Origin: Acetofilamentum sp.
Lineage (GTDB): Bacteria > Bacteroidota > Bacteroidia > Bacteroidales > JAFGUD01
Reading direction: 5' to 3'
Length of the DNA: 50,723 bases
Assembly (NCBI GenBank): GCA_020722645.1
Contig: DYKL01000001.1
Location: 1-50,723 of the forward strand
Part shown: piece after piece, positions 13,465 to 50,461 of the stretch
Layout: each line of letters opens with the position of its first letter
Numbering within the stretch: the stretch's first letter is position 1
Translations under genes and position numbers: made by a program
The notes under the pieces: generated by a model
The model's input: the letters and a program-made list of their open reading frames with translations, nothing else
Told to the model about the DNA's origin: nothing
Database searches by the model: none

Positions 13465-13506
13465 AAAAAACTGTATTAAGGCGAAAGTTTTAATACAGTT
13501 TTTTTT
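13465..13506. terminator. Bidirectional rho-independent terminator between convergent genes
   Basis: A6-ctgtattaa-ggcgaaagtt-ttaatacag-T8. Confidence 0.7.
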
Positions 13507-14245
13507 ATCTTTTCCAAAACTGGGATATTTTAAAAAAATTTTTCTTAAAAAGAGTAAACACTCCTCCAACATTATTCCTTTTAATAATTCTATAATCTTC
13601 CGTTGATTTTATCAAAATATTCATAATTTTATTGTTACTGACACCACCTACACGCATTTTAATCAGCACTTCAGGGATATATAACAACTTGACACTATTA
13701 GTCAAAAATCTTAAAATTAAATCATAATCGGCAGAAATTTTATATTCAGTATTAAAATATTTATATTTATCGAATATTTCTTTTTTTACATAGAAAGTAG
13801 GATGTGGAGGCATCCAACCACTTCGTAATTTTTTATTATTATAAAAACCTGACTTCCATCTTCTTATAATTTGCTGAGGGTTAGAAAATGAAACATAATC
13901 CAAATCACTGTATGTTGCATCACAACTTGAATTTTCAAAAGTTTCAGCAATTTTTTCAACAACATTTTCATCAGAAAAAAAATCATCTGAATGCAAAAAT
14001 CCTATAACATCACCTGTAGATTCTCTGATTCCTTTATTTAATGCGAAATAAATACCATCATCTTGTTCGGAAACAATTTTTGAGATGTGATCAAATTTTT
14101 TTACAATTGACAAAGTATTGTCAGTTGAACCACCATCTATAATAATATGCTCTAAGTTTTTATAAGTTTGTGATTTAACCGATAAAAGAGTATCTTCAAT
14201 AGTTTCCTGATTATTAAAACAAGCAGTAATAATAGAAATCTTCAT
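13505..14245 (-). CDS. Family 2 glycosyltransferase
   Basis: 246 aa. MKISIITACFNNQETIEDTLLSVKSQTY..IIIDGGSTDNT, then a DD motif (HSDDFF). Confidence 0.85.
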   Translation of the reverse strand: MKISIITACFNNQETIEDTLLSVKSQTYKNLEHIIIDGGSTDNTLSIVKKFDHISKIVSEQDDGIYFALNKGIRESTGDVIGFLHSDDFFSDENVVEKIAETFENSSCDATYSDLDYVSFSNPQQIIRRWKSGFYNNKKLRSGWMPPHPTFYVKKEIFDKYKYFNTEYKISADYDLILRFLTNSVKLLYIPEVLIKMRVGGVSNNKIMNILIKSTEDYRIIKRNNVGGVFTLFKKNFFKISQFWKR

Positions 14246-15783: not shown

Positions 15784-16389
15784 ATGAATATTGTTACTCC
15801 ACCGAAAATTTTGAAAAAATTATTCAAAAAAGTTATTTGGAATATTGAAAACGAAGAAAATAAAATATTTTTAACTTTCGACGACTGTAGTGATTACGAT
15901 GTTTCTATATGGATTTTAGAAGTTTTGAAAACCTATAATATCAAAGCTACGTTTTTTTGTGTTGGAAAGTATGTCGAAAAAAATAATTTAATCAAACAGA
16001 TTTTAATTAACGGACATACTATTGGAAATCATACTTATAGTCATTTAGACGGTTTTAAATACTCTTTGAAAAGCTATTTAAAGGATATTCAAAAATGTAA
16101 TGAAATAGTTAAAAGTAAATATTTTAGACCACCTTACGGTAAAATAACTTTAAATAAAATAAATAAAATTTCTGAAAACTATAAAATTGTGATGTGGGAT
16201 TTAATTAGTTTTGATTTTGATACAGATACTTCACCCGACAAATGTTTCGAGAATGTAAAAAACAATGCTAAATCAGGCTCGATAGTGGTATTTCACGCAT
16301 CAAAAAAAGCAGAAAAAAACCTGAAATTTGCTTTGATAAAAACAATTGAATTCTTTTTAATTAAAGGTTTTACATTCGATAAGTTATAA
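15784..16389 (+). CDS. Polysaccharide deacetylase (NodB homology domain)
   Basis: 201 aa. FLTFDDC, TFFCVG, GHTIGNHTYSH motifs. Confidence 0.82.
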   Translation: MNIVTPPKILKKLFKKVIWNIENEENKIFLTFDDCSDYDVSIWILEVLKTYNIKATFFCVGKYVEKNNLIKQILINGHTIGNHTYSHLDGFKYSLKSYLKDIQKCNEIVKSKYFRPPYGKITLNKINKISENYKIVMWDLISFDFDTDTSPDKCFENVKNNAKSGSIVVFHASKKAEKNLKFALIKTIEFFLIKGFTFDKL

Positions 16390-25388: not shown

Positions 25389-25414
25389 TTTAAAATTTTC
25401 AAAAATAAATATTT

Positions 25415-26098
25415 GTGAAAAAAACACTGAAATTTTGGTCAGACGACGATAAACCCAGAGAAAAACTTATGAATAAAGGAATTTCGGTATTATCAGATGC
25501 CGAACTTATCGCTATATTGATAGGTTCAGGAAACAAAGAAGAAACAGCCGTCGAACTTGCTCGAAGAATACTTATGGACAATGATTTGAATGATCTCGGC
25601 AAATTATCCATTAAAGAACTCACCAAATACAAAGGCATAGGAGAAGCAAAAGCAATAGCTATTGTTGCGGCAATAGAATTAGGAAAAAGAAGAAAAAGTT
25701 TTGAAGTATATGAAAAAAAAATTATTGAAAGCACAACAGATATCTTTGAATATATGTATCCGGTACTTTGTGATTTGGAACACGAAGAATTCTGGGCAAT
25801 TTATATGAATAATTCAGGAAAAATAATTAAAAGACAAAAAATAGCACAGGGAGGAATAACAAGTACTACGGTTGATTTGAGATTAATTATGAAATCTTCG
25901 ATTGAAAACCTTGCCGTTTCAATCATAATTTGTCATAATCATCCTTCTGGCAATGTGATGCCAAGCGAAGAGGATATTAAACTGACAAAAAAAATCAAAG
26001 AAGCTTGCAACACATTAAACATTAAACTTTTAGATCATCTGATTATAAGTGGAAACAACCGCTATAGTTTTTACGAATCCGGAATATTGGAATTATAA
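25415..26098 (+). CDS. radC: RadC-family JAB/MPN domain protein
   Basis: 227 aa. HhH region (LTKYKGIGEAKA) and the HNHPSGN JAMM motif. Confidence 0.88.
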   Translation: MKKTLKFWSDDDKPREKLMNKGISVLSDAELIAILIGSGNKEETAVELARRILMDNDLNDLGKLSIKELTKYKGIGEAKAIAIVAAIELGKRRKSFEVYEKKIIESTTDIFEYMYPVLCDLEHEEFWAIYMNNSGKIIKRQKIAQGGITSTTVDLRLIMKSSIENLAVSIIICHNHPSGNVMPSEEDIKLTKKIKEACNTLNIKLLDHLIISGNNRYSFYESGILEL

Positions 26099-26100
26099 TT

Positions 26101-27003
26101 ATGGATATACTATATAAAAAAAACTCTGAAATTGATAAAGACAATTGGGACAAAAATATGAACAAATGCCTCAATCAAAACACTTATGCTTATAGCTGGT
26201 TCTTAGATACTGTTTGCAATAATTGGGATGCTTTAATTTCAGATGACTACAAAATTTTGATGCCTTTACCAACAACCGGAAAATTTAATTTAAAAGTTTA
26301 TCAGCCAAAATTTATCCCAAAACTTGGAATTTATTTTTCCAGAGAATTTTCAAATGCAAAACAAGCTCTTTTCTTAAACAATATTCCATCTTCTTATAAA
26401 ATAGTAACCTTAAATTTTAATAAATTCAACAATTTATCTTATAAAAAAGGTGTTCTGAAAAAATCATTTTATTCGATTGATTTATATCAAACTTACAATC
26501 AGATAACAAAAAAATACTCTGAAAAGTTAAAAAGCACATTGTTTAATAAAAACTCCGAAAAAATATATATTACTAATTCGATACAAATTAATGATATTAT
26601 AGATTTTTTAAATAAAAAGCATACATTCAAAAACGTAAAAGATTACGATACAATAAGAAGAATATTAGCTATTACAACAATCCGAAAACTTTCAAATATT
26701 TACGCTGCATATTCGGGAAAAAACGAATTAATTGGATTAGGAATTTTTATTATATCAGCATACACGACTGATTTGATTGTTATTGAAAGTGAAGAAAACA
26801 AATACAATACAAGTGCTTTAATAATTGATAAATTTATAAAAACAAATTCAACAAAAGCGCTTACGCTAAATTTTGAATATTCAAATGAAAATCTGATTGA
26901 CTTATATATTGATTTTGGAGCTGAAGAATATCTATACGAACAACTGAAATTCAATAGAATACCTTCGCTATTCAAATTATTTACAAAACATAAAACAAAA
27001 TAA
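26101..27003 (+). CDS. Uncharacterised ~300-aa protein, FemAB/GNAT-fold candidate (paralog 1)
   Basis: N-terminal EIDKDNWDKNM..YAYSWFLDTVCNNWDALISDDYKILMPLP aligns with the paralog at 29852-30763. The fold assignment is my recollection of similar Bacteroidota proteins, not a search result. Confidence 0.5.
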   Translation: MDILYKKNSEIDKDNWDKNMNKCLNQNTYAYSWFLDTVCNNWDALISDDYKILMPLPTTGKFNLKVYQPKFIPKLGIYFSREFSNAKQALFLNNIPSSYKIVTLNFNKFNNLSYKKGVLKKSFYSIDLYQTYNQITKKYSEKLKSTLFNKNSEKIYITNSIQINDIIDFLNKKHTFKNVKDYDTIRRILAITTIRKLSNIYAAYSGKNELIGLGIFIISAYTTDLIVIESEENKYNTSALIIDKFIKTNSTKALTLNFEYSNENLIDLYIDFGAEEYLYEQLKFNRIPSLFKLFTKHKTK

Positions 27004-27007
27004 AACA

Positions 27008-28276
27008 TTGATTTTTAATAAATTAATAAAAAATGAATTTGTAAAAAATGTTTTTACTCTTTTAAGTGGCTCTGCTGTATCCCAAATTATAGTTTTTTTG
27101 CTGATGCCGATACTTACAAGATTGTATTCTGAAGAATTATTTGGCGTTTATTTCATTTTTGTAAGTACTTTGAATATTTTAAAAAAAATTACAACATTAA
27201 GATTAGAACTTACAGTTGTATTGCCTAAAAAAGACTTCTGGGCAATTAATGCTCTGGCTTTATCTATTTTTACAACCATTATCACATCTTTATTATTCTT
27301 AATAATTTCAATTTTTACTAAAAAAGTAATTTTAAAAATCTATGAAATTTCAGCTATTGGAAATTATATTTATTTACTTCCTCTAACATTATTTTTTATT
27401 GGTATTTACGAATCATTTTCATCTTGGAACAATAGATATAAAGAATACAAAAAAATAAGTATCAGTAAATTAAGCTATTACGGCACATCAACAGCTTCAC
27501 AAATTGCAGCAAAATTTTATATATTGACAGTAAACGGTTTGATTTTAGGTGCTGTATTTGGACAAATGTTTTCAACAATTTTAATTTTTTTATTATCAAT
27601 AAAAAACGTAATAACACATTTGAAAGATGTTAAAATAAAAAGAATTAAAATTCTATTAATCAGATACAAAAACATTCCCACATTTAATACTTTAATAAAT
27701 TTCATAACAAATTTTTCAAATGAAATTCCGATTTATCTTTTTACTAGTTTTTATTCAACAATTATTTCAGGTTTGTATGGTATTGCAAATAAAATTGTAG
27801 CAACACCAATGAATATGCTTAGTCAATCAATCGGGCAGGTTTTTTATCAAAAAGCATCAGCACAATATTCAAACAGACAGGACATTCAACCATTCATAAA
27901 AAAAACAATATTAAATGTTCTGAAATTAGGAACTTTACCAATAATTGCAATTGCAGCAATTTCGCCTTTTGTTCATTTTATTTTGGGAGAAGAATGGAAG
28001 GAACTAGGTCAGTATATTCTAATTCTTTTACCTTCAATTTTGGCAAATTTTGTTGTTCAACCACTAACGATTGTACCTACAATTGTTAATAAACAGAATA
28101 AATTTCTGCTTCTTTTAATAATTTTTTCTGCTGTGAAAATTTTGTCTATTTGGTTGGGCTTAATAATATTTTCAAACCCTCTGATTTCTTTAATTTTCTT
28201 GTCGGTAAGTTCTACAATTTTCAGAATCTACCTGTCTATATGGATATACAAATCAGTTATCAAGAATCAGGTTTAA
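27008..28276 (+). CDS. MOP-superfamily oligosaccharide/polysaccharide flippase (Wzx-like)
   Basis: 422 aa, about 12 TM. N-terminal KNVFTLLSGSAVSQIIVFLLMPILTRLYSEELFGVY is typical of Wzx-type translocases. TTG start. Confidence 0.8.
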   Translation: MIFNKLIKNEFVKNVFTLLSGSAVSQIIVFLLMPILTRLYSEELFGVYFIFVSTLNILKKITTLRLELTVVLPKKDFWAINALALSIFTTIITSLLFLIISIFTKKVILKIYEISAIGNYIYLLPLTLFFIGIYESFSSWNNRYKEYKKISISKLSYYGTSTASQIAAKFYILTVNGLILGAVFGQMFSTILIFLLSIKNVITHLKDVKIKRIKILLIRYKNIPTFNTLINFITNFSNEIPIYLFTSFYSTIISGLYGIANKIVATPMNMLSQSIGQVFYQKASAQYSNRQDIQPFIKKTILNVLKLGTLPIIAIAAISPFVHFILGEEWKELGQYILILLPSILANFVVQPLTIVPTIVNKQNKFLLLLIIFSAVKILSIWLGLIIFSNPLISLIFLSVSSTIFRIYLSIWIYKSVIKNQV

Positions 28277-29852
28277 TTAGTTTTTCTAAAAAATCTAAAT
28301 ACCAGATTGTTATTATCGAATTATATTTCACAACATTTTTGAATTTATAATCCAACTCTTTAACCATAGGCTCAGTAATTGGATAATGAAAACACCAATC
28401 GTTTTTAATTAAAATTTTCTTTTTAATGTAACCACTTAATCGTCTTTTAATAAGATCTTTAATTCTCTGAAATATTATTTTTGAAATTGTAGCTTGCAAT
28501 TCTTTTTTAAAATTTACCTTAAACCCAGTAAAATATTTGTTAATTAAAACATCATCATATAATCGTTTAGATATCCTGTATTTAGAAGGTAAAGCTTTGA
28601 AAAAATCCATTAGTTCATTATCCCAATAAGGAAACCTGACCTCATATCCAAAGTAATCGAAAACAGTTGAGGAATTAAAAATAAATTTTGCGATTTTTTC
28701 TTTTATATCATATTCTTCAATTAATGAATAGGGAATGTATGATTTTTCGCCTCTTAGATTTTGAAGCCTTTTGTTTATAATATCATAAATTTCCTTTTGA
28801 AAGTTTTTATTGATTTTATTTAAAAATAATTTTCTTTTAAAAATAATTTCAGGAACTTCTTTTAGTTCGACATTATCATTAAAAACTTTAACAAACTGGC
28901 TACCACCAAGCAAATCGCCGGAATGACCAGGAATAAATACTGCGTTTGATTCTATTAATTTGTTGTCTTTTAGGTACTTTACAGCAAAATACTCCTGAAG
29001 ATAAGGCATAGACGTAATTTTACCTGCATATTTTGCATAATCTCTAAATAGTTCGCTGTTGTAATAATCTTTAATCAATTCATTATTATATTCTACAAAA
29101 TACCATTTAAAGCCCAACTTATGAGCAGCATTTCTTGAGTTTTCAATTTGTTCGTTCCCCTTTCTGCCATAAGTAAAACAAACAACATTTTGGTAATTGA
29201 ATTTTTTGAGCATCACTGCAATAAGTCTTGAATCGTACCCTCCACTTAAAGGCAAAGCAACCTGTTTGTTTTCCAAAGATACAATTAGCCTTTTAAATGA
29301 ACTTTCCAGTTTTTCGACAGACATTTCCTTTAATTCATTATATGAGCTATTTAATTGATTTTCAATTGCGAAAGAATAAAAAGATGATGTTTTTACAATT
29401 TGATTATTTTCGAATAAAATCCATTCTGCAGGCTTCACGGAAAAAATTCCTTTAATTAAAGTACCATTGTCAATTGTATATCCCGATGCTTTAAAAATGT
29501 GAGCATTAACTAAATCTATAGAAGGATTGGGCATTCTGTTTATTAACTCAAAAGCAGAATCACTAATGTAATACTTATCTGAAATTAATGTGTAAAATAT
29601 TGGAAAAAAGCGAGTTTTGTCTGATGCAATAAACAAAGTTTCATTTTTTTTGAATAAAATTGTAAAAACACCATTCAATTTTCCGACTAATTCAATTAAA
29701 TCATCAAAAGCAGAAAAATTACATAAAAAATTCAACGCATCAATATTCTGATAAAAATTGTTGTTTTGATCAAAAAAATAACCTTTTACAAAAAAAATAT
29801 CGTTGTGATACCATTTAAAACCCTTGTTATTTTTTAGAATAAGTTCGTACAT
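28260..29852 (-). CDS. Asparagine-synthase-family ATP-dependent amidoligase, no N-terminal Cys nucleophile
   Basis: PP-loop LPLSGGYDSRLIAV. The N-terminal domain resembles the Ntn glutaminase fold (LNGVFTILF..IASDKTRFFPIFY) but has no Cys2 with either start. The ATG at 29852 shares one base with the upstream stop (TAATG). Confidence 0.8.
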   Translation of the reverse strand: MYELILKNNKGFKWYHNDIFFVKGYFFDQNNNFYQNIDALNFLCNFSAFDDLIELVGKLNGVFTILFKKNETLFIASDKTRFFPIFYTLISDKYYISDSAFELINRMPNPSIDLVNAHIFKASGYTIDNGTLIKGIFSVKPAEWILFENNQIVKTSSFYSFAIENQLNSSYNELKEMSVEKLESSFKRLIVSLENKQVALPLSGGYDSRLIAVMLKKFNYQNVVCFTYGRKGNEQIENSRNAAHKLGFKWYFVEYNNELIKDYYNSELFRDYAKYAGKITSMPYLQEYFAVKYLKDNKLIESNAVFIPGHSGDLLGGSQFVKVFNDNVELKEVPEIIFKRKLFLNKINKNFQKEIYDIINKRLQNLRGEKSYIPYSLIEEYDIKEKIAKFIFNSSTVFDYFGYEVRFPYWDNELMDFFKALPSKYRISKRLYDDVLINKYFTGFKVNFKKELQATISKIIFQRIKDLIKRRLSGYIKKKILIKNDWCFHYPITEPMVKELDYKFKNVVKYNSIITIWYLDFLEKLIKPDS

Positions 29853-30763
29853 TATCTTTTTAGACACATTTTTAAAAATTTCCAATTATATTTAAAATAT
29901 CTTGAATATGGAACAAGAGTTGAGCCAAATCCTGAATTAAAATACTCAATTCCTTTTACATTTGAACCGGCAAAATCTAATGTTAAATCCTTCTCTGAAT
30001 GATCTTTAATAAATTCATTTACAATTGCATAATTTGCATTTATTGAAACACCTTTATCATTTGATATATGCGAAATTACAACTTTTTTGCCATTTAAAAA
30101 AAAACAAGCGGAAGCACAAAAAAAATTATTTTCATCATAAGCATTATAAACTAATAATCTGTTTGTTTGCTTCAAATAATTCAAAAGTTTATATAATTTT
30201 TCATAATCATTTTCGGTAACTTTATTTTTAAGTCTGTCTAAAATAATTTTTTTTCTGGTATTAAAAAAATCAGAAAAATCGTCTGTTTTTTTTACAGTTA
30301 CAAGAGAATTAGCTTTATCAATATTTCTTTTGGTATTTCGTCTGAAATTATTATAAATGCTTTTATATTCGGTGTTCAAATATAACAGATAATTCTTCAT
30401 TGTTTCGATTTTTGCATTTGAAAAAGAACTATCTGTTAAATCGATTCTTAAATCAATCAAAGCGAATTTATGTGGTATTTTACTTAAAAAAATACTGATT
30501 GATGCTTTATCCATAGGTTCCCTTGAATAAATAGCAACTTTTTGAAGGTGTGTCGGTGTATAAATATAGTTAATCAGAAATTTTTTATTGAATGGCAGAG
30601 GCATAACAGCTTGATAGTCATCTAAAACCAATGCATTCCATTTTTCGGCAATAATATCCAAAAACCAAGAATAACCGTAAATATTATTATTGTGTGCATC
30701 TGCTATCAGATTATCCCATTTATTTCTGTCAATTTCATTATTTTTCAAAAAACTAATACTCAT
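29852..30763 (-). CDS. Uncharacterised ~300-aa protein, FemAB/GNAT-fold candidate (paralog 2)
   Basis: EIDRNKWDNLI..YGYSWFLDIIAEKWNALVLDDYQAVMPLP. Paralogous to 26101-27003. The ATG at 30763 overlaps the sulfotransferase stop by 11 nt. Confidence 0.5.
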   Translation of the reverse strand: MSISFLKNNEIDRNKWDNLIADAHNNNIYGYSWFLDIIAEKWNALVLDDYQAVMPLPFNKKFLINYIYTPTHLQKVAIYSREPMDKASISIFLSKIPHKFALIDLRIDLTDSSFSNAKIETMKNYLLYLNTEYKSIYNNFRRNTKRNIDKANSLVTVKKTDDFSDFFNTRKKIILDRLKNKVTENDYEKLYKLLNYLKQTNRLLVYNAYDENNFFCASACFFLNGKKVVISHISNDKGVSINANYAIVNEFIKDHSEKDLTLDFAGSNVKGIEYFNSGFGSTLVPYSRYFKYNWKFLKMCLKR

Positions 30764-31631
30764 CAAAGTAAATATTATAAAATTCTTTTAATTTTTTCAA
30801 ATCTTGTTCAAAATATTTTTCTGCAAATTTAATTTCGTTGTTTGAAATATCAATATCATTAGCATCGGTTTTATTCAAATTGTGGATTTTATCTACCATA
30901 CCGCTTCTAAAAATAAAATTTTTCATAAAATTCGGAACAATATTTCTTAGCAATCTTCTAAAAAAATTATTTCTGTTCAAAAGTAGCTGTTCGACAGTTT
31001 TGGATTTTACTTTTTTTGATGTATTGGCTTTAATTTCTTCAATGTAATCGAAATCAGAGATTTGAAGAAAATCTGAAATTTTTTTCAGAACAGATTTGTA
31101 TGATTTTTTTAAATCTTCGGTTTTAACAATTAAAAAATTTTCTTTCGGAAAAACAGATGTCCATTTTTGCAGATGCTGAAAATAGAGACTTTGATATGCA
31201 TTACACAAATTATTTTTTTGTTCAATTGATAATTTTGAAATAATATTTTTTTCTTTTTCAATTGATTCGATAAACGATATTTTTTCAGACAGATAACCAT
31301 TATTGACAGCATATTTATATCCGGAAAAACTTCTGTAAACTGGATTTCTGAGCATAACAATAAATTTCATCTGCGGATTATACTCATAAATTTTATTTAT
31401 TGCCTCATAATCTATAAACAAATAAGTATCAGCACTTACGAAAACTTTTTTATCTTTTTCATTGAAAAAAGAATGATAATATTTTAAACCCCGCTTGTAT
31501 AAGTCGTTAACTGAAAAAAAGTGAACTTCTTTTATCGAACTAAAAGCGACCTGTTCGTGGTTTTCGAGATATTGAAAAATTGTCGTTGTACCGCTCCTAC
31601 CCGCTCCAATAATTATAGCATCAACTTTCAT
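30753..31631 (-). CDS. PAPS-dependent sulfotransferase
   Basis: 292 aa. 5'-PSB-like IIGAGRSGTT and 3'-PB-like LRNPVYRSFSGY. The ATG overlaps the upstream stop (ATGA). Confidence 0.8.
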   Translation of the reverse strand: MKVDAIIIGAGRSGTTTIFQYLENHEQVAFSSIKEVHFFSVNDLYKRGLKYYHSFFNEKDKKVFVSADTYLFIDYEAINKIYEYNPQMKFIVMLRNPVYRSFSGYKYAVNNGYLSEKISFIESIEKEKNIISKLSIEQKNNLCNAYQSLYFQHLQKWTSVFPKENFLIVKTEDLKKSYKSVLKKISDFLQISDFDYIEEIKANTSKKVKSKTVEQLLLNRNNFFRRLLRNIVPNFMKNFIFRSGMVDKIHNLNKTDANDIDISNNEIKFAEKYFEQDLKKLKEFYNIYFDEY

Positions 31632-32608
31632 CTTTTAATCAAATTTTTTCCAAAAATACCCTTTATTAAATAATAAAAAAATTCATATTTGATTGTTTCA
31701 ATGGCAGTTTTTCCGTTTTCCATCGGAATACGCTGAATATTAAATTTGATAGAATCATTTTTTAATCCCGCAGTACCAAAAGTTAAATCAACAGAAGTAG
31801 AAATTCTTTCAAAAAATGATTTATTAACCTTATAATCTGTAAAGGGAAACGCAAATAATTTGAATTCGGGATTAAATTCTCTGATTACAAAATCAAGACT
31901 ATCAATAGTTTGTTGAATTTGTTCATTTTCGGTTAATTGTGAATAATAAAAATGATTGGCACTATGTGCACCAATGTAAAAGCCTTGATTGTGAAGCTCT
32001 TTGATTTGATTAGAAGACATATAAGGCTTGTGTTTTTGCAAATATTCAGCAAAATCAATTTCTAAAAGTTTAGCTATTTGCTCAATAACATTAGTATTTT
32101 TATGATTCAACGAAAGCAAATATTTTTTAATGTCAGATGTATTAATATTTATCTTTTTCAAATACTTTTCAACGATGTTTTGATACTTAGTGTTTTTAAA
32201 AGTTTTGTCAATAATCAGTGAAATTTTGTAACGATAAAACAAATCTAAATTGTCAACAAAAGCAGAATTGATAAAAAAAATAGCAGGTATTCCCTTTTTT
32301 TTTAATAATGGAGCAACAATGTCATAAATTTCGGAAAGACCATCGTCAAAAGTAAGAAAAAAGGTTTTTTCGTTTATAAATTTTTCGTTTATAAACAACT
32401 TTAAATCAATACGTTTGAAATTTTTTAGATAAAAATCCAAATCCTCAACAAATTCTTTAGTTGATTTTATTTTATATAAATGTTTTAAATGAATGGGAGA
32501 AATATCTGATACAGAGTGATACAAAGGGAAAATAGTTTTTTGTTTGTTAAGCGTATATAAAAATTTAAACGGAAATATTTGAGCAATACTGAAAATTAGA
32601 TTATTCAT
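31628..32608 (-). CDS. Polysaccharide deacetylase (NodB homology domain)
   Basis: 326 aa. FLTFDDGLSEIYD, IPAIFFINS, IGAHSANH. Confidence 0.85.
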   Translation of the reverse strand: MNNLIFSIAQIFPFKFLYTLNKQKTIFPLYHSVSDISPIHLKHLYKIKSTKEFVEDLDFYLKNFKRIDLKLFINEKFINEKTFFLTFDDGLSEIYDIVAPLLKKKGIPAIFFINSAFVDNLDLFYRYKISLIIDKTFKNTKYQNIVEKYLKKININTSDIKKYLLSLNHKNTNVIEQIAKLLEIDFAEYLQKHKPYMSSNQIKELHNQGFYIGAHSANHFYYSQLTENEQIQQTIDSLDFVIREFNPEFKLFAFPFTDYKVNKSFFERISTSVDLTFGTAGLKNDSIKFNIQRIPMENGKTAIETIKYEFFYYLIKGIFGKNLIKR

Positions 32609-33005
32609 TATCAGAAGATAAATTTTGAATAATTTTATGCAAAATCTTTACCATTTCATTTTGAATTGATTGAAAATCTTGGATAGTTGAATCAACATAG
32701 GCAAAAGAAACTACAACAGACAAATTGTTTTTTCCCAAAAAAGTAAAAAGTAAACTTTTATTCAAGCGATAAGATTCTCTTATCAGTCTTTTTATGCGAT
32801 TCCTGTCAACAGAGCGTTTGAATTTTTTTTTTGAAACCGTTATTAAAATTTTACAAAGAACATCATTAGTTTCAACAATTAAATATTTTGCAATTAAGGG
32901 GAAAGATTTTATAGGCAAACCCTTTAAATATATATCATTGATGATTTTTTTTGATGTTAGTTTTTCTTTTTTGGGAAAAGTGAATCTATTTTGTTTTATT
33001 TGCAT
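32601..33005 (-). CDS. rnpA: RNase P protein component
   Basis: 134 aa. Basic RNR motif (VDRNRIKRLIRESYR). Confidence 0.82.
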   Translation of the reverse strand: MQIKQNRFTFPKKEKLTSKKIINDIYLKGLPIKSFPLIAKYLIVETNDVLCKILITVSKKKFKRSVDRNRIKRLIRESYRLNKSLLFTFLGKNNLSVVVSFAYVDSTIQDFQSIQNEMVKILHKIIQNLSSDNE

Positions 33006-33732
33006 TCTTTTTTAGATATTTTTCTAATGCCATTGCCATTGAAGGTACTCCGGCGGTCGGAGCTTTTATATCAACTTTTAAACCTGCTTTAACTGCAGAT
33101 TTTGTAGTTTCAGAGCCAAATGTTGCTAATTTTATTTTTTTGTCTCTAAAATCAGGAAAATTTGCAACCAAAGAATCAACTCCCGAAGGGCTAAATAAAG
33201 CCACAATATCATAGCTTAATTTTAATTTGCTTAAATCTACATTAACAACCTTGTATGATACCGCTTTTATAACATTTAATTTTTTTCGTTTCAACTTATT
33301 GATTAAATTGTTCTTGTGAGTATTAGCAACAGGTAATAAAAATACTTCATCAGTAAATTTTGAAACCACTTCAATTAAACTATCCATTAGTCCATCTGTA
33401 AAAAATATTTTTCTTTTACGATAAGTGATATATTTATTCAGATAGTTGGAAATAGATTCATTTATGCAGAAATATTTTAAGGTAGTAGGAGGGTAATATC
33501 TCATTTCAGTTGCCAATCTGAAATAGTGATCAACTGCTATTTTACTAGTAAAAATAACAGCAGTAAAAGAAGATAAATCTATTCTGAGACGACGAAATTC
33601 TCTTGCTTCAACCGGTTCGATATCAAAAAACTTGTGAAAATCAACTTTAACATTGTATTTTTTAACAATATCATCGTAAGGTGAGCGCTGAGTTGGTTGT
33701 GGTTGTGAAATTAAAATACTTTTAATTTGCAT
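32986..33732 (-). CDS. Uroporphyrinogen-III synthase-like (HemD-fold) protein
   Basis: 248 aa. ILISQPQP..SPY, AVIFTSKIAVDHYF, YFCINESISNYL..YRKRKIFF. This is the conserved Bacteroidota HemD-like protein that pairs with DUF4271. Confidence 0.78.
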   Translation of the reverse strand: MQIKSILISQPQPTQRSPYDDIVKKYNVKVDFHKFFDIEPVEAREFRRLRIDLSSFTAVIFTSKIAVDHYFRLATEMRYYPPTTLKYFCINESISNYLNKYITYRKRKIFFTDGLMDSLIEVVSKFTDEVFLLPVANTHKNNLINKLKRKKLNVIKAVSYKVVNVDLSKLKLSYDIVALFSPSGVDSLVANFPDFRDKKIKLATFGSETTKSAVKAGLKVDIKAPTAGVPSMAMALEKYLKKNANKTK

Positions 33733-33757
33733 ATAAATCTCTTTTTTAATTCTCTAA

Positions 33758-34585
33758 TTAAAATTTTTGAATCGAAAAAAGTTTTAAAGTAATTAAAACA
33801 GGAAAAATTTCGACCGTGCAAAGATATAAAATGAAATAAAACAATGATAATCCTTGATGAAAAAATTCTTTGAACTCCTTATAAATTCTCAAAAAAAAGA
33901 TTATCAAAATAAAAAAAATTGATAAAAAAAGACCTCTTTCTGAAAAAACAGGGTTGTAAATTGTAATAAAAATTAAAAAAATTAAAAAGATGGAAATAAA
34001 TGCATTAGATATTTTAATTGAAAGAATATTTATTTCGGAAAAAATCTTTTTATCTATTGACAATGACCATATTTTTGAAGTTATAACTTTTAACAAAAAA
34101 AACAATGATAATGAAAATAAAACTATAACATAAGTTAGTAAGGAATCTTTATGAGTAATAATTGAATAACTATCAATAAAAAGAATACTTAGTACAGAAA
34201 CCGAAATAAAAAATGCGACATTCAAAATATTAATAAATGAGACAATTACTGAATTTTTATTATTTAAAAGTTGCCGAAAAAACACATTATTAAATGTCGC
34301 TTTTACAATCAAATTTATTTCCTGATTATAATTGTAATAAATATAGACAATAAAAGCAAAAAATATAAAAAAAAGTGGAATATACCACCAGTTACTATTA
34401 ATTTGAATTTTATCAGATTGAGCATGTTCAACCGGGAGAACTTCAGATTTATTGTAGTTAAAATCTACGCTTCCAAAATTTCCTTTGTATTCTGATTTTT
34501 TTTTATTTGTTTCATTATAATTTTGGGAGCTGGCAACAACTGGAATTAAAAAAAGCAATAATATTATTAAATTCTTTTTATTCAA
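33758..34585 (-). CDS. Polytopic membrane protein (DUF4271-like candidate)
   Basis: 275 aa. Signal peptide then about 6 TM. Usual neighbour of the HemD-like gene in Bacteroidota, from memory. Confidence 0.6.
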   Translation of the reverse strand: MNKKNLIILLLFLIPVVASSQNYNETNKKKSEYKGNFGSVDFNYNKSEVLPVEHAQSDKIQINSNWWYIPLFFIFFAFIVYIYYNYNQEINLIVKATFNNVFFRQLLNNKNSVIVSFINILNVAFFISVSVLSILFIDSYSIITHKDSLLTYVIVLFSLSLFFLLKVITSKIWSLSIDKKIFSEINILSIKISNAFISIFLIFLIFITIYNPVFSERGLFLSIFFILIIFFLRIYKEFKEFFHQGLSLFYFILYLCTVEIFPVLITLKLFSIQKF

Positions 34586-35072
34586 CTATTTCAATTTTTT
34601 GTATTTTTGAATTATCTTCTGAATTTTTAGATAAATAGTCCACAGATTTTAATAAAACAGGGTGTACAAAATCCGATTCTATTTCTAAAAGAGGCGTAAG
34701 AACAAAATTTCTTTTATGTGCAAATTTATGTGGAATAATTAAATCATCTGTATTTAAAATTAAGCTGTCGTAAAAAATAATGTCAATGTCTAAAGTCCTT
34801 GCCTCGTATGTGTTTTTATTTTTTATTCTTTTATGTGTTTTTTCAATGAATTTTATTTTATTTAATACCTCATTTGGAGTAAGCTTGGTGGTAACTTTAA
34901 GAGCCATATTCAAAAAATTATTATCGTCATTAAAACCCCATGGTTCTGTCTCATATTTTGAAGATATTTTTGAAATAGTACCTATTTCTTTTTCAATATA
35001 TTTAACAGCACTTTGTAAAGTTTCATATCTGTTACCCAAACTGCTGCCCAAGCTTAAAATTACATTATGCAT
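34578..35072 (-). CDS. folK: 2-amino-4-hydroxy-6-hydroxymethyldihydropteridine diphosphokinase
   Basis: 164 aa. LGSSLGNR, TEPWG, RTLDIDII, IPH..RNFVL motifs. Confidence 0.92.
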   Translation of the reverse strand: MHNVILSLGSSLGNRYETLQSAVKYIEKEIGTISKISSKYETEPWGFNDDNNFLNMALKVTTKLTPNEVLNKIKFIEKTHKRIKNKNTYEARTLDIDIIFYDSLILNTDDLIIPHKFAHKRNFVLTPLLEIESDFVHPVLLKSVDYLSKNSEDNSKIQKIEIVE

Positions 35073-35161
35073 AAAAGTTGTTTCTTATAATCATTTATGA
35101 TTAATTTATCAAATAAAGATTTTTATAAGTTAAATTAGTTACAAATATTTACGGCAAAATT

Positions 35162-37918: not shown

Positions 37919-38971
37919 TTAATTTTCATATTGTTTTTTGTAATAATTTTTATATTCGCCTGAAATGGTATTATTAAGCCATTCTTCATTAGATAAATAC
38001 CAATCAACCGTTTTTTCAAGACCTTTTTCAAAAGTCATTTCAGGTTTCCAGTTCAAATGATTTTGAATTTTTGAAGAATCAATTGCATATCTTAAATCGT
38101 GACCTGCTCTGTCTTTTACAAAACTTATCAATTTAGCTGACTCATATTCAGGTCGGTTTAATTTTTTATCCATTATTTTACATAATAAATAAATAAGGTC
38201 TATGTTTTTCCATTCATTTGAGCCGCCGATGTTATATGTTTCTCCATTTTTTCCGTAATGAAAGATAATATCTATTGCTTTGGCGTGGTCTTCTACATAT
38301 AGCCAATCTCTGATGTTTTCTCCCTTACCGTATATTGGAATAGGTTTTTGATTTTTAATATTATTTATAGCCAAAGGGATTAATTTTTCCGGAAATTGAT
38401 TTGGACCATAATTATTTGAGCAATTGCTGATTACAATTGGTAAATTAAATGTGTTTTTGTAAGCCCTTACAAAGTGGTCTGATGATGCTTTAGCCGCAGA
38501 ATATGGACTTTTTGGATCGTAGGAGGTATTTTCGGTAAAAAAATCAATTTGATTCTCTAACGAACCATAAACCTCATCAGTTGAAATATGATAAAACAAA
38601 TTATTTTGATTATTAGTCCAATACTTTTTTGCAATATTCAATAAAGTTACAGTACCTATTATGTTTGTATTTATAAATTCCATAGGATTTAAAATTGACC
38701 TGTCAACGTGTGATTCTGCAGCAAGGTGAATAACAGAATCAATTTCATAAGAATTGAATACTTTATCAACAAAATTTTCGTCGCAGATATCACCTTTTAT
38801 GAATTTATAATTTGAACTGTTTTTAATGTCAGTTAAATTCAGCAAATTTCCTGCATAAGTAAGTTTATCAAGATTAAAAATGTTATAGTTTGGATATTTA
38901 TTTACAAAGAGTCTGACAACGTGCGAACCAATAAAACCGGCACCACCTGTAATGAGTATATTTTTTTTCAT
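37919..38971 (-). CDS. rfbB: dTDP-glucose 4,6-dehydratase
   Basis: 350 aa. GGAGFIGS, YSAAKASSDH, DWLYVEDH. Confidence 0.95.
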   Translation of the reverse strand: MKKNILITGGAGFIGSHVVRLFVNKYPNYNIFNLDKLTYAGNLLNLTDIKNSSNYKFIKGDICDENFVDKVFNSYEIDSVIHLAAESHVDRSILNPMEFINTNIIGTVTLLNIAKKYWTNNQNNLFYHISTDEVYGSLENQIDFFTENTSYDPKSPYSAAKASSDHFVRAYKNTFNLPIVISNCSNNYGPNQFPEKLIPLAINNIKNQKPIPIYGKGENIRDWLYVEDHAKAIDIIFHYGKNGETYNIGGSNEWKNIDLIYLLCKIMDKKLNRPEYESAKLISFVKDRAGHDLRYAIDSSKIQNHLNWKPEMTFEKGLEKTVDWYLSNEEWLNNTISGEYKNYYKKQYEN

Positions 38972-46482: not shown

Positions 46483-47472
46483 ATGTTAAAAAACTTTCAG
46501 AAATACACATTCAGCAGTATTATTATTACAGTTATTATCTCAATAATAATTCTGTTTTCCACTTATATTATAAAACCACAAATAAATAACGATATATATA
46601 CCACACCTTTTTATAATTTTATTTTCAGATGGTTTAATAATTCAAAAAATTGGCTGATTCTTGCAGGAATATTCTTAATTATGATTCAAGCAACTTTTTT
46701 GGCTCTATATACAAATAAAGACAAATTGTTTGGAGTTAATACTTTTGTTGTAGCAATTTTATTTATTGTTTTAAATTCACACCCATCTTTACATTACTTT
46801 TCTCCGGTTTTAATTTCTAATACTATAATTATTGTTTCATTAGGCACATTTTTCAAAACTGTCAAAGAAAAAAAATCAACAAATGAATTTTTAAAAATCT
46901 CAATTTTACTGGCAATTGCATCATTATTTTACTTCCAGTATATTCTTATTATTATGTTTGCGATTGTTTCAATATTTATAATAAGATCAAAACCTACCAA
47001 AGAAATTTTTTCTGTTATTTTTGGATTTATTTTGGTTTACGTCTTTTTTTATGAATCATATTTTTTGATAAACGGAACATGGTTCAGTTTCAATCCATTT
47101 TTTGAAAGTATTTCGATTAAAACATTAAAATTAGATAACACAGCCATATTTATTGGATTTGGAATATTTATTCTTCTTACATTCGTAATAGCAAACAACC
47201 ACATTCTTCAGAAAATAGCAACTAAGGAAATTGAAAAAAGGACTATTTTTCAGCTTTTATTCTCATTATTTGTCTTTTTCACAATTTCATATGTTGCAAT
47301 TCCAAATGTATCTTTTAACTTTTTAAACTCTTTAAGCATACCTGTCTCTATACTTTTCGGGGATTATGTATCTAATCTGAAACTAAAAAAAATCAATAAA
47401 ATTTATTTTATATTATTAATTTTTTCTTCTTTGGCATTTATAACAGAATTTATTTTAAACAAACTATTTTAA
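46483..47472 (+). CDS. Polytopic membrane protein, unknown function
   Basis: 329 aa, about 9 hydrophobic segments. Confidence 0.68.
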   Translation: MLKNFQKYTFSSIIITVIISIIILFSTYIIKPQINNDIYTTPFYNFIFRWFNNSKNWLILAGIFLIMIQATFLALYTNKDKLFGVNTFVVAILFIVLNSHPSLHYFSPVLISNTIIIVSLGTFFKTVKEKKSTNEFLKISILLAIASLFYFQYILIIMFAIVSIFIIRSKPTKEIFSVIFGFILVYVFFYESYFLINGTWFSFNPFFESISIKTLKLDNTAIFIGFGIFILLTFVIANNHILQKIATKEIEKRTIFQLLFSLFVFFTISYVAIPNVSFNFLNSLSIPVSILFGDYVSNLKLKKINKIYFILLIFSSLAFITEFILNKLF

Positions 47473-47931
47473 AGATTTAATTTTCAGCAAAGTATTAAAT
47501 TCTTTTTTTAATTCCTCGATTTGATTTTTTGATAAAAGAGACAAACTTACGGGAGGGTATGTTCCTGATTTCTTACCTTTTTTGATATGTAAAATTAAAT
47601 TTTTGTTAAAACCTTTAAAGGAATCTTTAATTTCGTATTTGTCAAATTCATCTAGTTGTATTTCATAAGCTTTAAATTTAGATAAAAAAGGATGTGGATT
47701 AAAAAACCTGATTACAAAACTTTTGTATTTTGTTTCAAATGAAAAATAGTATGGCTTTTTAAAAAAGAAAAAAATATAAATAAAAATCAAAACAATTCCA
47801 ATAATCAATAATATTATATTATAGTCAACAGGGTTTGAAAAATAAAACACCAGACTTACTACGAAAGAAATTATCAACAAAGGAAAAATTAAACGGTATG
47901 GAGCTGCTTTTTTAAAATTTTCGATTTTCAT
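47464..47931 (-). CDS. Two-TM membrane protein, unknown function
   Basis: 155 aa. Two N-terminal TM segments and a basic soluble C-terminus. Confidence 0.62.
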   Translation of the reverse strand: MKIENFKKAAPYRLIFPLLIISFVVSLVFYFSNPVDYNIILLIIGIVLIFIYIFFFFKKPYYFSFETKYKSFVIRFFNPHPFLSKFKAYEIQLDEFDKYEIKDSFKGFNKNLILHIKKGKKSGTYPPVSLSLLSKNQIEELKKEFNTLLKIKSLK

Positions 47932-48101
47932 ATTGAGTTTTATTTATGAAAAAACACAAAAAACAAATTTTGACTTTAACTTTTTAAAAGAAAATACAAA
48001 AGTAAATCATTTTAAGTTCTTTTAAAAATTACTTTGAAATTGATAAATTTTTAAAAAAAAAATCACTAAAAAATTCGTTTTTACTGAAATAATAGAACAA
48101 A

Positions 48102-49588: not shown

Positions 49589-49675
49589 TTTTTTTAAAAA
49601 TTAATAAAAAAATATCTTAAATTACAAACTGTGAGAATCTATAAAATTGTTAATGAACTTTTGGTTAATAAATCG

Positions 49676-50461
49676 TCAAATTTGGTCAGTTAATTCATAA
49701 TTCAATTTTTTTAGTAAATCAGAATTTTCTTTTAAAAATTCTTTATATGAATCATCATCAAAATAATTTTTATAATCACCAATTATGCCTTTTCTAGCAG
49801 AGACACTAGTAGTTTTGCGACCTTTTAGTAGATTGAATAATTTTCTGATTTTTCTATTTTTAAATTTATATTTTTTTAATCTTATATCAATTATTTTATT
49901 TTTTAATTTTAATTCAAATTTATTTGCAATATCTTGAATAGTCTTTTCGTAATTAAGATTTAAGTCTTCATATTTTAGAAAAAGTATTTTGTTAGAATAA
50001 ATACTTCTCTCCCATGATTCAATGTGAAACTTCCAAAATTGTATACGATTATATTCTTCTGAAGTTTTATCAAAATTGTGTTTTGTCATTAAAAATTCTT
50101 TAAACGAAATAACTTTTATCTTTTCGTCAAATTTTTTCATAAATTCAAAAAGGGAAACCATCACATCTAAACCATTTCTATACACATAGATAATATTTGA
50201 GTTGAAAAACAAAAGATTGATTTTGTTTCTAAAATCTTGGTTTTCAATATATATATCGAATTGAGGCAAATAATGGGTTTTTATTAAAACGGGTATTTTT
50301 TTTTTGTTAAAATATTCAATTTTTTCTAATGCTAACTTGTAGTTTTCATTTAAAACAATCAATTTTTTTTTATTAAAACCTTGGACATTATTTATTAATG
50401 TATCTAAAGTTAAATGAGTACCCGATCTTCTATGGGTAACAATTATTAGATTTTTATTCAT
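49676..50461 (-). CDS. Sulfotransferase-domain protein (cytosolic SULT-like motifs)
   Basis: 261 aa. THRRSGTHL (5'-PSB), KTHYLP, VYRNGLDVMVS (3'-PB-like). Confidence 0.7.
   Translation of the reverse strand: MNKNLIIVTHRRSGTHLTLDTLINNVQGFNKKKLIVLNENYKLALEKIEYFNKKKIPVLIKTHYLPQFDIYIENQDFRNKINLLFFNSNIIYVYRNGLDVMVSLFEFMKKFDEKIKVISFKEFLMTKHNFDKTSEEYNRIQFWKFHIESWERSIYSNKILFLKYEDLNLNYEKTIQDIANKFELKLKNKIIDIRLKKYKFKNRKIRKLFNLLKGRKTTSVSARKGIIGDYKNYFDDDSYKEFLKENSDLLKKLNYELTDQI

Follow-up and report, generated by a model that had tools for sequence, protein, structure and literature searches.

A putative Wbp/Vim-type amino-sugar tailoring locus between radC and rnpA in Acetofilamentum sp.

The six-gene block at positions 26101-32608 of a 50,723-nucleotide stretch of Acetofilamentum sp. 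DNA (contig DYKL01000001.1; the whole stretch is called the window here) is probably a Wbp/Vim-type Bacteroidota locus for amino-sugar tailoring that was rearranged in this lineage, a reading to which we assign a probability of about 0.55. The gene set conserved in Bacteroidota most likely replaces the acetyl group on an amino sugar of the cell surface with an amino acid. In Porphyromonas, the same exchange chemistry yields a sugar that anchors secreted proteins to the outer membrane. A sequence-only reading of this DNA had proposed envelope tailoring linked to an exosortase. Our analysis supports the view of the block as a module that tailors an envelope glycan precursor and brings its own Wzx-type flippase, and the proposed deacetylation, aminoacylation, amidation and sulfation fit the folds and families and are rated the most likely chemistry; the exosortase link, however, found no support.

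Gene organization of the block

As previously described, eleven genes form two convergent strings with overlapping stops and starts, which was confirmed by ORF coordinates and sequence. The forward string consists of radC (25415-26098; RadC Pfam 4e-41, NF000642 227 bits), the first of two paralogs of about 300 aa with a FemX/FemAB fold (P1, 26101-27003) and a Wzx-type MOP flippase (27008-28276; Polysacc_synt_3 4e-19). Upstream on the reverse strand lie four housekeeping genes (32601-35072). The outermost, folK (34578-35072, placed by its ORF coordinates), overlaps the DUF4271 gene (33758-34585; DUF4271 3e-19) by 8 nt, the HemD-like gene (32986-33732; HEM4 1e-24) overlaps rnpA (32601-33005; Ribonuclease_P 1e-16) by 20 nt, and rnpA overlaps the NodB deacetylase gene (31628-32608; Polysacc_deac_1 2e-16) by 8 nt, all as calculated from coordinates. 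The remaining junctions of the reverse string were read from the sequence: an ATGA stop/start overlap joins the deacetylase to the sulfotransferase gene (30753-31631; Sulfotransfer_1 2e-17), which overlaps the second paralog (P2, 29852-30763, about 300 aa, FemX/FemAB fold) by 11 nt, and P2 meets the AsnB-like gene (28260-29852; Asn_synthase 7e-10, DUF7411 1e-07) at TAATG. The flippase and AsnB-like genes overlap convergently at their 3' ends by 17 nt.

Inside 26101-32608 there is indeed no glycosyltransferase, Wzy/Wzz, sugar-nucleotide, transposase or tRNA gene. Such genes in the vicinity are rmlB (37919-38971) and a GT2 gene (13505-14245). Being free of glycosyltransferases is not special to the window: the core locus of Flavobacteriales described below usually has none either; GT4 adjoins cassette-type genes in some other relatives. 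Neither wbpA, wbpB, wbpE, wbpD, T9SS core genes nor a DUF7033 gene are present within the window. One window-encoded protein showed a weak match to the T9SS sorting domain. The junction of the cassette with rnpA occurs in 0 of 161 related loci, and rnpA, HemD-like, DUF4271 and folK genes were found near cassette genes in none of them. The rnpA junction seems to be specific to this lineage and is probably an incidental juxtaposition.

The FemAB-like paralogs and their partner enzymes

P1 and P2 are 28% identical over 272 aa (E 2e-28) and are thus true paralogs. Profile HMM searches gave neither protein a match of its own in Pfam or NCBIfam, and the FemAB-like family had no match to NCBIfam models even at E<=10. 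Among 21 paralog-family members, nine matched PF13480 and two FemAB. One family member matched TIGR03019 (4.8e-6). Structure prediction and fold search revealed a tandem-GNAT FemX/FemAB fold for both proteins: the AlphaFold model of P2 (pLDDT 91.7) retrieved Sbb17, FemX and FemA as top Foldseek matches (E 2e-11, TM 0.68), and that of P1 (pLDDT 93.7) retrieved Sbb17/Sba18 and Weissella FemX (E 5e-9 to 1e-7). A family profile matched FemX 6snr at E 0.005. The FemAB relationship proposed earlier is therefore borne out by family profile matches and fold.

The best structural matches of both paralogs are aminoacyl-tRNA-dependent enzymes that act on an amino sugar. Sbb17/Sba18-type enzymes use Gly-tRNA to aminoacylate the streptothrisamine amino sugar (PMC12945691). 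P1 and P2 share only 8-13% sequence identity with these FemABX-like proteins of streptothricin-type antibiotics (Orf11, Sba18, Sbb17), which aminoacylate a sugar amine and are encoded in actinomycete antibiotic clusters, whereas the window genes belong to an envelope locus that is conserved and includes a flippase. Judging from its modelled fold, P1 is a putative aminoacyl transferase onto an amino sugar. In the NJ tree, the paralogs fall in different clades. P1 is the more divergent one, on a long branch near Salinivirgaceae and sulfidic-cave Bacteroidales copies, and P2, closer to the canonical Flavobacteriales copy, clusters with L002 and the radC-linked Flavobacteriales clade. In one relative (L168), the order radC, P1-like gene, flippase is kept, with a P1 homolog of 49% identity in the same position followed by a flippase homolog of 48%. 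The closest P2 homolog (45% identity) adjoins an AMP-ligase and an acyl-carrier-like protein, and therefore the donor may not be tRNA. One homolog bears the JGI annotation lipid II:glycine glycyltransferase.

The deacetylase carries TFDDG and HSANH motifs and is predicted to be a CE4/NodB N-deacetylase of the PgaB-N-terminal-like type, not of the VimE/DUF7033 type; it matched neither the VimE model NF053580 nor TIGR03006. Homologs with 36-43% identity lie directly downstream of a FemAB-like gene in six related loci (L030, L032, L043, L053, L107, L109). The sulfotransferase, with visible PAPS-binding motifs (GAGRSGTT and RNPVYRSFS), is predicted to be PAPS-dependent and carbohydrate-directed. 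Its closest solved structures are bacterial 3rnl and heparan-sulfate glucosamine 3-O-sulfotransferases (2e-15), with the NDST N-sulfotransferase domain at 7e-10. Homologs were found in 0 of 161 related loci, and the gene appears to be a lineage-specific addition.

The AsnB-like protein keeps a PLSGGYDSR PP-loop, but the catalytic cysteine (Cys2) is absent from it and from 34 family representatives, its N-terminus and theirs starting M-x-x-x-L. From these features it is predicted to be a PP-loop ATP-dependent amidotransferase or amide ligase without a glutaminase nucleophile. Its family comprises 1709 representative clusters at E<=1e-30. Matches to TIGR01536, Asn_synthase and DUF7411 were far under the cutoffs, as was that to the WbpS-type model TIGR03108 (49.7 bits, cutoff 816.9), and the best solved structure was human asparagine synthetase (E 1e-3). 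The flippase belongs to the Polysacc_synt_3 and Polysacc_synt families (Wzx-type), gave no MurJ match, and is predicted to transport an undecaprenyl-PP-linked glycan unit. In 33 of the 53 related loci with enough flank, the AsnB-like gene is immediately preceded by a Wzx flippase homolog, and porS-wbpS of P. gingivalis shows the same pairing (PMC7468200).

A conserved locus in relatives and the Wbp/Vim pathway

At least nine Flavobacteriales-type loci share a core in which radC is followed by a DUF7033/VimE-like and a FemAB-like gene, convergent with flippase, AsnB-like (about 530 aa) and hexapeptide acetyltransferase genes (e.g., L088, L090, L096, L099, L105, L107 and L139). This core is single-copy and located among housekeeping genes across Flavobacteriales, and we found no description of it in the literature consulted. 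radC, which precedes the VimE-like and FemAB-like genes, serves as synteny anchor and is no part of the chemistry. Of 73 related genome loci, 34 encode the 435-aa DUF7033 protein directly before the FemAB-like gene, the two frequently overlapping by 4 nt. This protein matches VimE model NF053580 over its full length (E 1.9e-53, profile positions 65-430 of 431), at 181.6 bits and hence under the equivalog cutoff of 440. Neighbouring genes in relatives encode GT4 proteins, sugar acetyltransferases and polyprenyl-phosphate sugar transferases.

The window and the Flavobacteriales core have the radC anchor, the FemAB-like family and the convergent layout in common, with identities of 40-48% for the AsnB-like protein and 33-38% for the flippase. 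However, neither the DUF7033 deacetylase nor the hexapeptide acetyltransferase is present in the window, which adds P2, the NodB deacetylase and the sulfotransferase. Its flippase is relocated behind P1 on the forward strand, and it abuts rnpA, whereas the Flavobacteriales core abuts HAD and MgsA genes.

The Wbp/Vim pathway comprises the deacetylase VimE, the FemAB-like transferase VimA, the AsnB amidotransferase WbpS and the flippase PorS, and its product is a sugar linking T9SS cargo to LPS (Veith et al., 2020; PMC7468200). The logic in P. gingivalis and T. forsythia is alike: after a CE4 enzyme has freed the amine, Ser or Gly is attached by a FemAB-like GNAT; the uronamide is made by an AsnB-family enzyme, whose gene adjoins that of a Wzx-like flippase. 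In relatives of the window, a full-length VimE homolog is joined to the FemAB-like gene and the flippase-AsnB pair is kept. VimA matches an N-acetyltransferase domain and TIGR03019, and the GT4 gene beside FemAB-like genes in some relatives recalls vimF, which adjoins vimA and vimE (PMC7468200). P1 and P2 may be likened to VimA by fold, family matches and synteny rather than by direct sequence comparison. The window differs from Wbp/Vim in having two FemAB-like genes instead of one, a deacetylase of another CE4 subfamily, an AsnB-like protein without the glutaminase cysteine and far from the WbpS-type model, and an added sulfotransferase, with no GT4 (VimF) or wbp gene nearby. Its genes form two convergent strings by radC and rnpA, whereas the Wbp/Vim genes lie downstream of recA. 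Precedent for a flippase with a sulfotransferase or AsnB beside the VimA/VimE pair comes from gene maps of Pseudomonas mosselii (PorS-'sulfotransferase'-VimA-VimE) and Aeromonas veronii (PorS-AsnB-VimA-VimE; both Fig. S7, PMC7468200). These clusters include glycosyltransferases and a complete wbpA/B/D/E set, unlike the window, which in turn carries the AsnB-like gene and the sulfotransferase together.

Proposed pathway and alternatives

Beyond the observed folds, families and synteny, the pathway below is inferred, including substrates, acyl donor, step order and a T9SS role. The CE4 deacetylase would strip the N-acetyl group from an N-acetylamino sugar, probably a uronic acid, linked to a nucleotide or to undecaprenyl-PP, and free its amine. 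One or both FemAB-fold transferases would then put an amino acid on the free amine(s), most likely from aminoacyl-tRNA; the presence of two suggests two sites or a dipeptide. The AsnB-like enzyme might adenylate a carboxylate, with amidation by free ammonia or another amine, the sulfotransferase might sulfate an oxygen or nitrogen, and the Wzx flippase would export the lipid-linked unit. Glycosyltransferases and sugar-nucleotide genes would be located elsewhere in the genome.

The same chemistry could serve an ordinary O-antigen, capsule or EPS residue, namely an aminoacylated, amidated and sulfated amino-uronic sugar without T9SS anchoring, which we regard as possible but rather unlikely. Pseudomonas, Aeromonas and Vibrio, in which T9SS is absent, have VimA/VimE homologs in clusters of O-antigen type (PMC7468200), and no T9SS core gene adjoins the cassette in the window or its relatives. 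The AsnB-like/flippase pair is also found in glycosyltransferase-rich polysaccharide loci, in L127 and L145 together with the hexapeptide acetyltransferase, and therefore the product could be a plain residue of this kind. However, the conserved, single-copy Flavobacteriales locus amid housekeeping genes is unlike hypervariable O-antigen loci, which speaks against such a residue.

It is tempting to speculate that the deacetylase and sulfotransferase, translationally coupled through the ATGA overlap, form an NDST-like pair converting N-acetyl to N-sulfate, with the FemAB-like enzymes using another amine. In three relatives (L032, L043, L109) a GNAT-like acyltransferase comes after a deacetylase of this type, where the window has its sulfotransferase; such a pair would exchange acetyl for another acyl group. 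The sulfotransferase is closest to glucosamine sulfotransferases, including the NDST N-sulfotransferase domain. Nevertheless, 3-O-sulfotransferases score better than NDST, and O- and N-sulfation are not separable by gene adjacency alone. To our knowledge, N-sulfated sugars are not established in bacterial glycans, and we consider such a pair doubtful.

Modification of peptidoglycan precursors, with Fem-type addition of an amino acid to the lipid II side chain or bridge, amidation of mDAP or Glu, NodB deacetylation and lipid II flipping, is very improbable: FemX and FemA, the fold matches of P1 and P2, act on such precursors, one homolog carries the JGI label mentioned above, mDAP is amidated by AsnB-family members in certain Gram-positive bacteria and peptidoglycan is a substrate of NodB deacetylases, but the flippase is Wzx-type and not MurJ, P1 and P2 do not match the FemAB Pfam model, relatives pair the FemAB-like gene with a homolog of the UDP-sugar deacetylase VimE, the neighbours there are the sugar-related genes listed above, and we know of no role of a sulfotransferase in peptidoglycan synthesis.

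Equally hard to sustain is a Bacteroidota counterpart of the XrtA/PEP-CTERM EPS trio (TIGR03019, TIGR03006, TIGR03108) tied to the exosortase-family gene of the window. The block contains the same three enzyme superfamilies (FemAB-like, CE4 deacetylase, AsnB-like), and one paralog-family member matched TIGR03019. A parallel between the PEP-CTERM trio and VimA, VimE and WbpS was already speculated on by Veith et al. (2020; PMC7468200) and is not new. However, TIGR03019 and TIGR03006 were unmatched by the block, its TIGR03108 score is far under the cutoff, and exosortase homologs were found within 10 kb in 0 of 161 related loci. The presence of the gene itself (2972-3532) was confirmed by TIGR04178 (52 bits, cutoff 23); it best matches XrtX (117 bits, cutoff 170) rather than XrtF (61 bits, cutoff 90), stays under both cutoffs, and lies 23 kb from the block among unrelated genes, beside polA and an Omp28 lipoprotein gene.

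Layout of the cassette and its junctions

The cassette (26101-32608) consists of six genes in two convergent strings, and its layout is exactly the one described in the sequence-only reading. Pfam and NCBIfam back every assignment except those of P1 and P2, the two paralogs of about 300 aa. On the plus strand, radC (25415-26098) is followed by P1 (26101-27003, 300 aa, without a match in either database) and by a Wzx-type flippase, a 422-aa membrane protein (27008-28276, Polysacc_synt_3). On the minus strand, the string of folK, DUF4271, HemD-like and rnpA genes (35072-32601) has a gapless junction to the CE4/NodB deacetylase gene (32608-31628), which is followed by the sulfotransferase (31631-30753), P2 (30763-29852, 303 aa, likewise without a Pfam or NCBIfam match) and the AsnB-like protein (29852-28260, 530 aa). 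The reported stop/start overlaps are real: ATGA, 11-nt and TAATG junctions were seen in the sequence itself, and overlaps of 8, 20 and 8 nt were derived from the coordinates. The strings end with a 17-nt overlap of the stop-proximal ends of the flippase and AsnB-like genes on opposite strands (28260-28276), so that no space is left between them for an intergenic terminator. The contig stems from a metagenome (JGI 3300000227) and is also part of assembly GCA_973310575.1; its G+C content is about 27%. A scan for rnpA co-transcription in this AT-rich region, with a tool that does not cover Bacteroidota promoters, gave promoter and terminator counts near those of shuffled sequence.

A fusion of these genes to a housekeeping operon had been proposed. 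The junction is indeed tight, with an 8-nt overlap of rnpA and the deacetylase gene, but in none of 161 related genome and metagenome loci do rnpA, HemD, DUF4271 or folK lie near cassette genes. The fusion is therefore specific to the lineage of the window, and it is probably incidental. From the standard Wzx/Wzy O-antigen or capsule set, only the flippase was found within 25400-35100, which holds no initiating transferase, glycosyltransferases, Wzy or Wzz. A GT2 glycosyltransferase (13505-14245) and a second, classical NodB deacetylase (15784-16389; PdaB/PgdA-like, with a weak match to the XrtA model TIGR03006, 3e-9) are located among housekeeping genes 10-12 kb upstream of the cassette.

FemAB-like transferases and their relatives

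P1 is a homolog of P2 (28% identity, E 2e-28), and an initial search found only about 20 relatives. Among 21 aligned family members, PF13480 (Acetyltransf_6) was matched by nine, FemAB by two and TIGR03019 by one (4.8e-6). When the family profile was compared with the PDB, S. aureus FemX was the sole meaningful sequence match (E 0.005). Confident AlphaFold models (pLDDT 93.7 for P1 and 91.7 for P2) gave the same top Foldseek matches for both proteins, namely Sbb17 and Sba18, aminoacyl-tRNA-dependent peptide synthases solved with streptothrisamine. Weissella FemX, S. aureus FemX/FemA and then MprF-type aminoacyl-phosphatidylglycerol synthases occupied the further ranks. Given the family-profile matches and this ranking, the sequence-only reading was right to guess that the paralogs are FemAB-like. 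Pfam FemAB (PF02388) matches neither P1 nor P2, which have only the fold in common with the FemABX peptidoglycan-branching transferases (TM 0.6-0.7, 8-14% identity). None of the NCBIfam models matched the FemAB-like family even at E<=10, so that NCBIfam either has no VimA model or has one to which the family is too remote. Orf11, a homolog of Sba18 and Sbb17, carries out the Gly-tRNA-dependent aminoacylation of the streptothrisamine amino sugar (PMC12945691). Judged by the predicted structures, amino-sugar aminoacylation is the nearest structural precedent for P1 and P2.

In a distance-based NJ tree without support values, P2 clusters with the canonical radC-linked copies of Flavobacteriales, and P1 is placed on a long branch, close to the sequences of Salinivirgaceae and of Bacteroidales from sulfidic caves. 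This separate placement suggests that the two genes are old or of different origins. A recent tandem duplication is ruled out by the separate clades together with the 28% identity. Another tandem pair of FemAB-like genes (325 aa and 307 aa) was observed at L143:7039-14200, where an M20 peptidase/deacylase-like gene, the pair and an AsnB-like gene are convergent with GT4 and flippase genes. P2 has its closest homolog (45% identity) in a different operon (L002:6418-10927, also in L003), where the FemAB-like gene comes last, after genes for an AMP-binding ligase, a GNAT, an 83-aa acyl-carrier-like protein with a WNSL motif and a 361-aa protein without a Pfam match, in this order. This operon hints that the acyl donor for some FemAB-like members may be a carrier protein rather than a tRNA.

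A family-profile scan with one genome per species yielded 317 confirmed matches, and the best 80 of these, which were examined, are almost all from Bacteroidota. In 34 of the 73 loci with sufficient flank, a gene for a 435-aa DUF7033 protein lies directly upstream of the FemAB-like gene on the same strand, often with a 4-nt overlap. Annotated by NCBI as 'polysaccharide deacetylase family protein', the DUF7033 protein matches the whole profile of the NCBIfam model NF053580 for VimE, UDP-2,3-diacetamido-2,3-dideoxy-glucuronate deacetylase (E 1.9e-53; 181.6 bits, below the equivalog cutoff of 440). The order in Flavobacteriales is radC, in some cases an SLT transglycosylase, VimE-like and FemAB-like, and this string often converges with genes for a Wzx flippase and a GT4 glycosyltransferase. 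In Chitinophagaceae, a polyprenyl-phosphate sugar transferase gene and a GFO/IDH/MocA sugar 3-dehydrogenase-like gene are among the neighbors. No Porphyromonas protein is among the best-scoring matches to the FemAB-like or DUF7033 family profiles, which are mostly from uncultured organisms. In L168, the string of radC, P1-like and flippase genes is kept (64%, 49% and 48% identity to the window, respectively) and the minus-strand string is absent. There (L168:8459-15692), the genes that come after HAD, radC, P1-like and flippase encode a SAM methyltransferase, a Schlafen/AlbA-type ATPase and an FdtA-like sugar ketoisomerase.

The AsnB-like enzyme, the deacetylase and the sulfotransferase

The AsnB-like protein is a member of a large and so far uncharacterised subfamily, for which an exhaustive search at E<=1e-30 gave 1709 representative clusters with a length of about 530 aa throughout. 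The PP-loop PLSGGYDSR is kept, the N-terminal domain is shortened and the Cys2 nucleophile is absent, for which reason the family is predicted to be incapable of canonical glutamine hydrolysis. The window protein scores far under the cutoffs of all named AsnB-type models, including the WbpS-type model TIGR03108 (eps_aminotran_1; 49.7 bits, cutoff 816.9). Through this family, 80 metagenome loci were retrieved. In 33 of 53 related loci, the AsnB-like gene is directly preceded by a Wzx flippase gene in the same orientation; in the window, the flippase (Polysacc_synt_3) is its convergent neighbor.

At least nine Flavobacteriales-type loci share one arrangement, in which radC, VimE-like and FemAB-like genes are convergent with flippase, AsnB-like and hexapeptide acetyltransferase (200 aa) genes, flanked by trkA/trkH on one side and by HAD and MgsA on the other. 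This conserved locus is represented by the metagenome loci L088, L090, L096, L098, L099, L105, L107 and L139 and by the genome loci L008, L016, L041, L048, L050 and L070. The window contains no DUF7033/VimE-like gene, hexapeptide acetyltransferase or GT4. Since the conserved Flavobacteriales core usually has no glycosyltransferase either, the glycosyltransferase-free state that had been pointed out is not a peculiarity of the window. Further AsnB-like members occur inside ordinary glycosyltransferase-rich polysaccharide loci (e.g., L127). We found no published description of the compact Flavobacteriales locus in the literature examined.

The VimE model NF053580 does not match the CE4 protein of the window. 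Six loci encode a homolog of this NodB deacetylase (36-43% identity) directly downstream of a FemAB-like gene, and three of them continue with a GNAT-like gene. A family of about 360 aa recurs beside a NodB-type deacetylase or FemAB-like gene (L032:10617-11468, L043:8172-9272, L109:4313-5416 and L002:8906-9991); a weak Pfam GNAT match is confined to the L109 copy, which is related to the remaining copies at 20% identity. The window has the sulfotransferase in the place that follows the deacetylase. Both PAPS-binding motifs are kept in the sulfotransferase, which is nearest to glucosamine 3-O-sulfotransferases and the sulfotransferase domain of NDST and has no homologs in the 161 related loci. 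Its translational coupling to the deacetylase would leave room for an NDST-like swap of N-acetyl for N-sulfate, an unlikely reading. To our knowledge, N-sulfate in a bacterial surface glycan would be the first of its kind.

Relation to the Wbp/Vim pathway and alternative readings

In P. gingivalis and T. forsythia, T9SS cargo is amide-bonded to 2-N-seryl-3-N-acetylglucuronamide or 2-N-glycyl-3-N-acetylmannuronic acid (Veith et al., 2020, PMC7468200). In the Wbp/Vim pathway, which makes the sugar linking cargo to LPS, the CE4 deacetylase VimE takes off the 2-N-acetyl group, the GNAT VimA, also a TIGR03019 match, attaches the amino acid and the AsnB-family protein WbpS, whose gene comes right after the wzx-like porS, produces the uronamide (PMC7468200); vimF is an adjacent glycosyltransferase gene (PMC13086638). 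Related sets are PorS-AsnB-VimA-VimE in Aeromonas veronii and PorS-'sulfotransferase'-VimA-VimE in Pseudomonas mosselii (Fig. S7 in PMC7468200). P1 and P2, candidates for the VimA role, have the FemX fold, and the PF13480 and TIGR03019 matches of their relatives are of the weak kind reported for VimA. A flippase adjoining the AsnB gene, by family and position a putative PorS counterpart, is common to the window and the pathway. In contrast, the window deacetylase is not VimE-type, although the gene upstream of the FemAB-like gene in relatives does match NF053580, and the AsnB-like protein, which has no N-terminal Cys, is not WbpS-type. Strict membership in the pathway therefore fails on these two tested components. 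Most economically, the block would work like a Wbp/Vim-type tailoring module and can be filed there, its product being either a T9SS-anchoring sugar or a plain surface-polysaccharide residue. The new elements are the joint presence of two FemAB-like genes that diverge from each other, an AsnB-like enzyme lacking the cysteine, and a sulfotransferase with translational coupling to the deacetylase. These comparisons show the module to be evolutionarily plastic, with deacetylase types swapped, the transferase duplicated or taken from another clade, and a sulfotransferase or acyltransferase plugged in.

Experiments have identified the aminoacylated linking sugar that fixes T9SS cargo to the cell surface in no more than three oral Bacteroidales, and it is not the same in all of them (PMC7468200, PMC11969387). 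Prevotella intermedia uses an N-alanyl-deoxyhexose in the absence of VimA and VimE, and the authors of that study expect several linking-sugar pathways across Bacteroidota (PMC11969387). For Cytophaga and Flavobacterium, the cargo anchor is still unidentified, as a review on C. hutchinsonii states explicitly (PMC11611037). The radC-linked locus is a candidate for the linking-sugar genes of Flavobacteriales, compact and testable in culturable strains such as Polaribacter. We consider it unlikely, taking both parts together, that the radC-linked locus (VimE-like, FemAB-like, AsnB-like and Wzx) is the T9SS cargo-anchoring-sugar pathway of Flavobacteriia and that the uncultured organism of the window has remodelled it into a new anchor chemistry. 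Such an anchor would bear two aminoacyl groups or a dipeptide added by a pair of FemAB-like enzymes that differ in origin, an amide from an AsnB-like enzyme working without glutamine, and a sulfate, possibly an N-sulfate made by the NDST-like deacetylase/sulfotransferase pair.

Regarding other functions, a role in peptidoglycan is unlikely, as the flippase is Wzx-type and the partner in relatives is homologous to a UDP-sugar deacetylase. The sequence-only reading suggested that the block may be a Bacteroidota counterpart of the exosortase-A/PEP-CTERM trio, which comprises a FemAB protein, a deacetylase and an AsnB-family enzyme, a parallel already drawn for the Wbp/Vim proteins by Veith et al. 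(2020, PMC7468200). An exosortase-family gene is indeed present (2972-3532, flanked by polA and the gene of an Omp28-family lipoprotein), but it lies 23 kb from the cassette and stays below the cutoffs of its best model, XrtX (117 bits, cutoff 170), and of XrtF (61 bits, cutoff 90). TIGR03019 did not match P1 or P2 at E<=10, TIGR03006 did not match the cassette deacetylase, the AsnB-like protein stays far under the TIGR03108 cutoff, and no exosortase was found within 10 kb of the 161 related loci. The exosortase link thus fails on both model scores and neighborhood. A natural-product cluster with a streptothricin-like, lasso-cyclase-like or beta-lactam-synthetase-like AsnB was rejected because the locus is conserved, lies amid housekeeping genes and has a Wzx flippase. 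For the window, the main outcome is that an odd-looking cassette is re-filed under a published pathway and its exosortase connection is removed.

The 50.7-kb contig carries no wbpA/B/E/D and no PorU/V/Z/Q, and its only T9SS type-A sorting-domain match is weak (48162-48635; 20.8 bits, cutoff 23). The second sulfotransferase of the window (49676-50461) was considered as a paralog of the cassette enzyme and dismissed, the two being barely similar (E 0.008). Within 47464-50461, it is located beside three short FG-GAP ORFs (48162-48635, about 48.6-48.9 kb and 49223-49567), which look like one fragmented or frameshifted cargo gene, one of them bearing the weak sorting domain.
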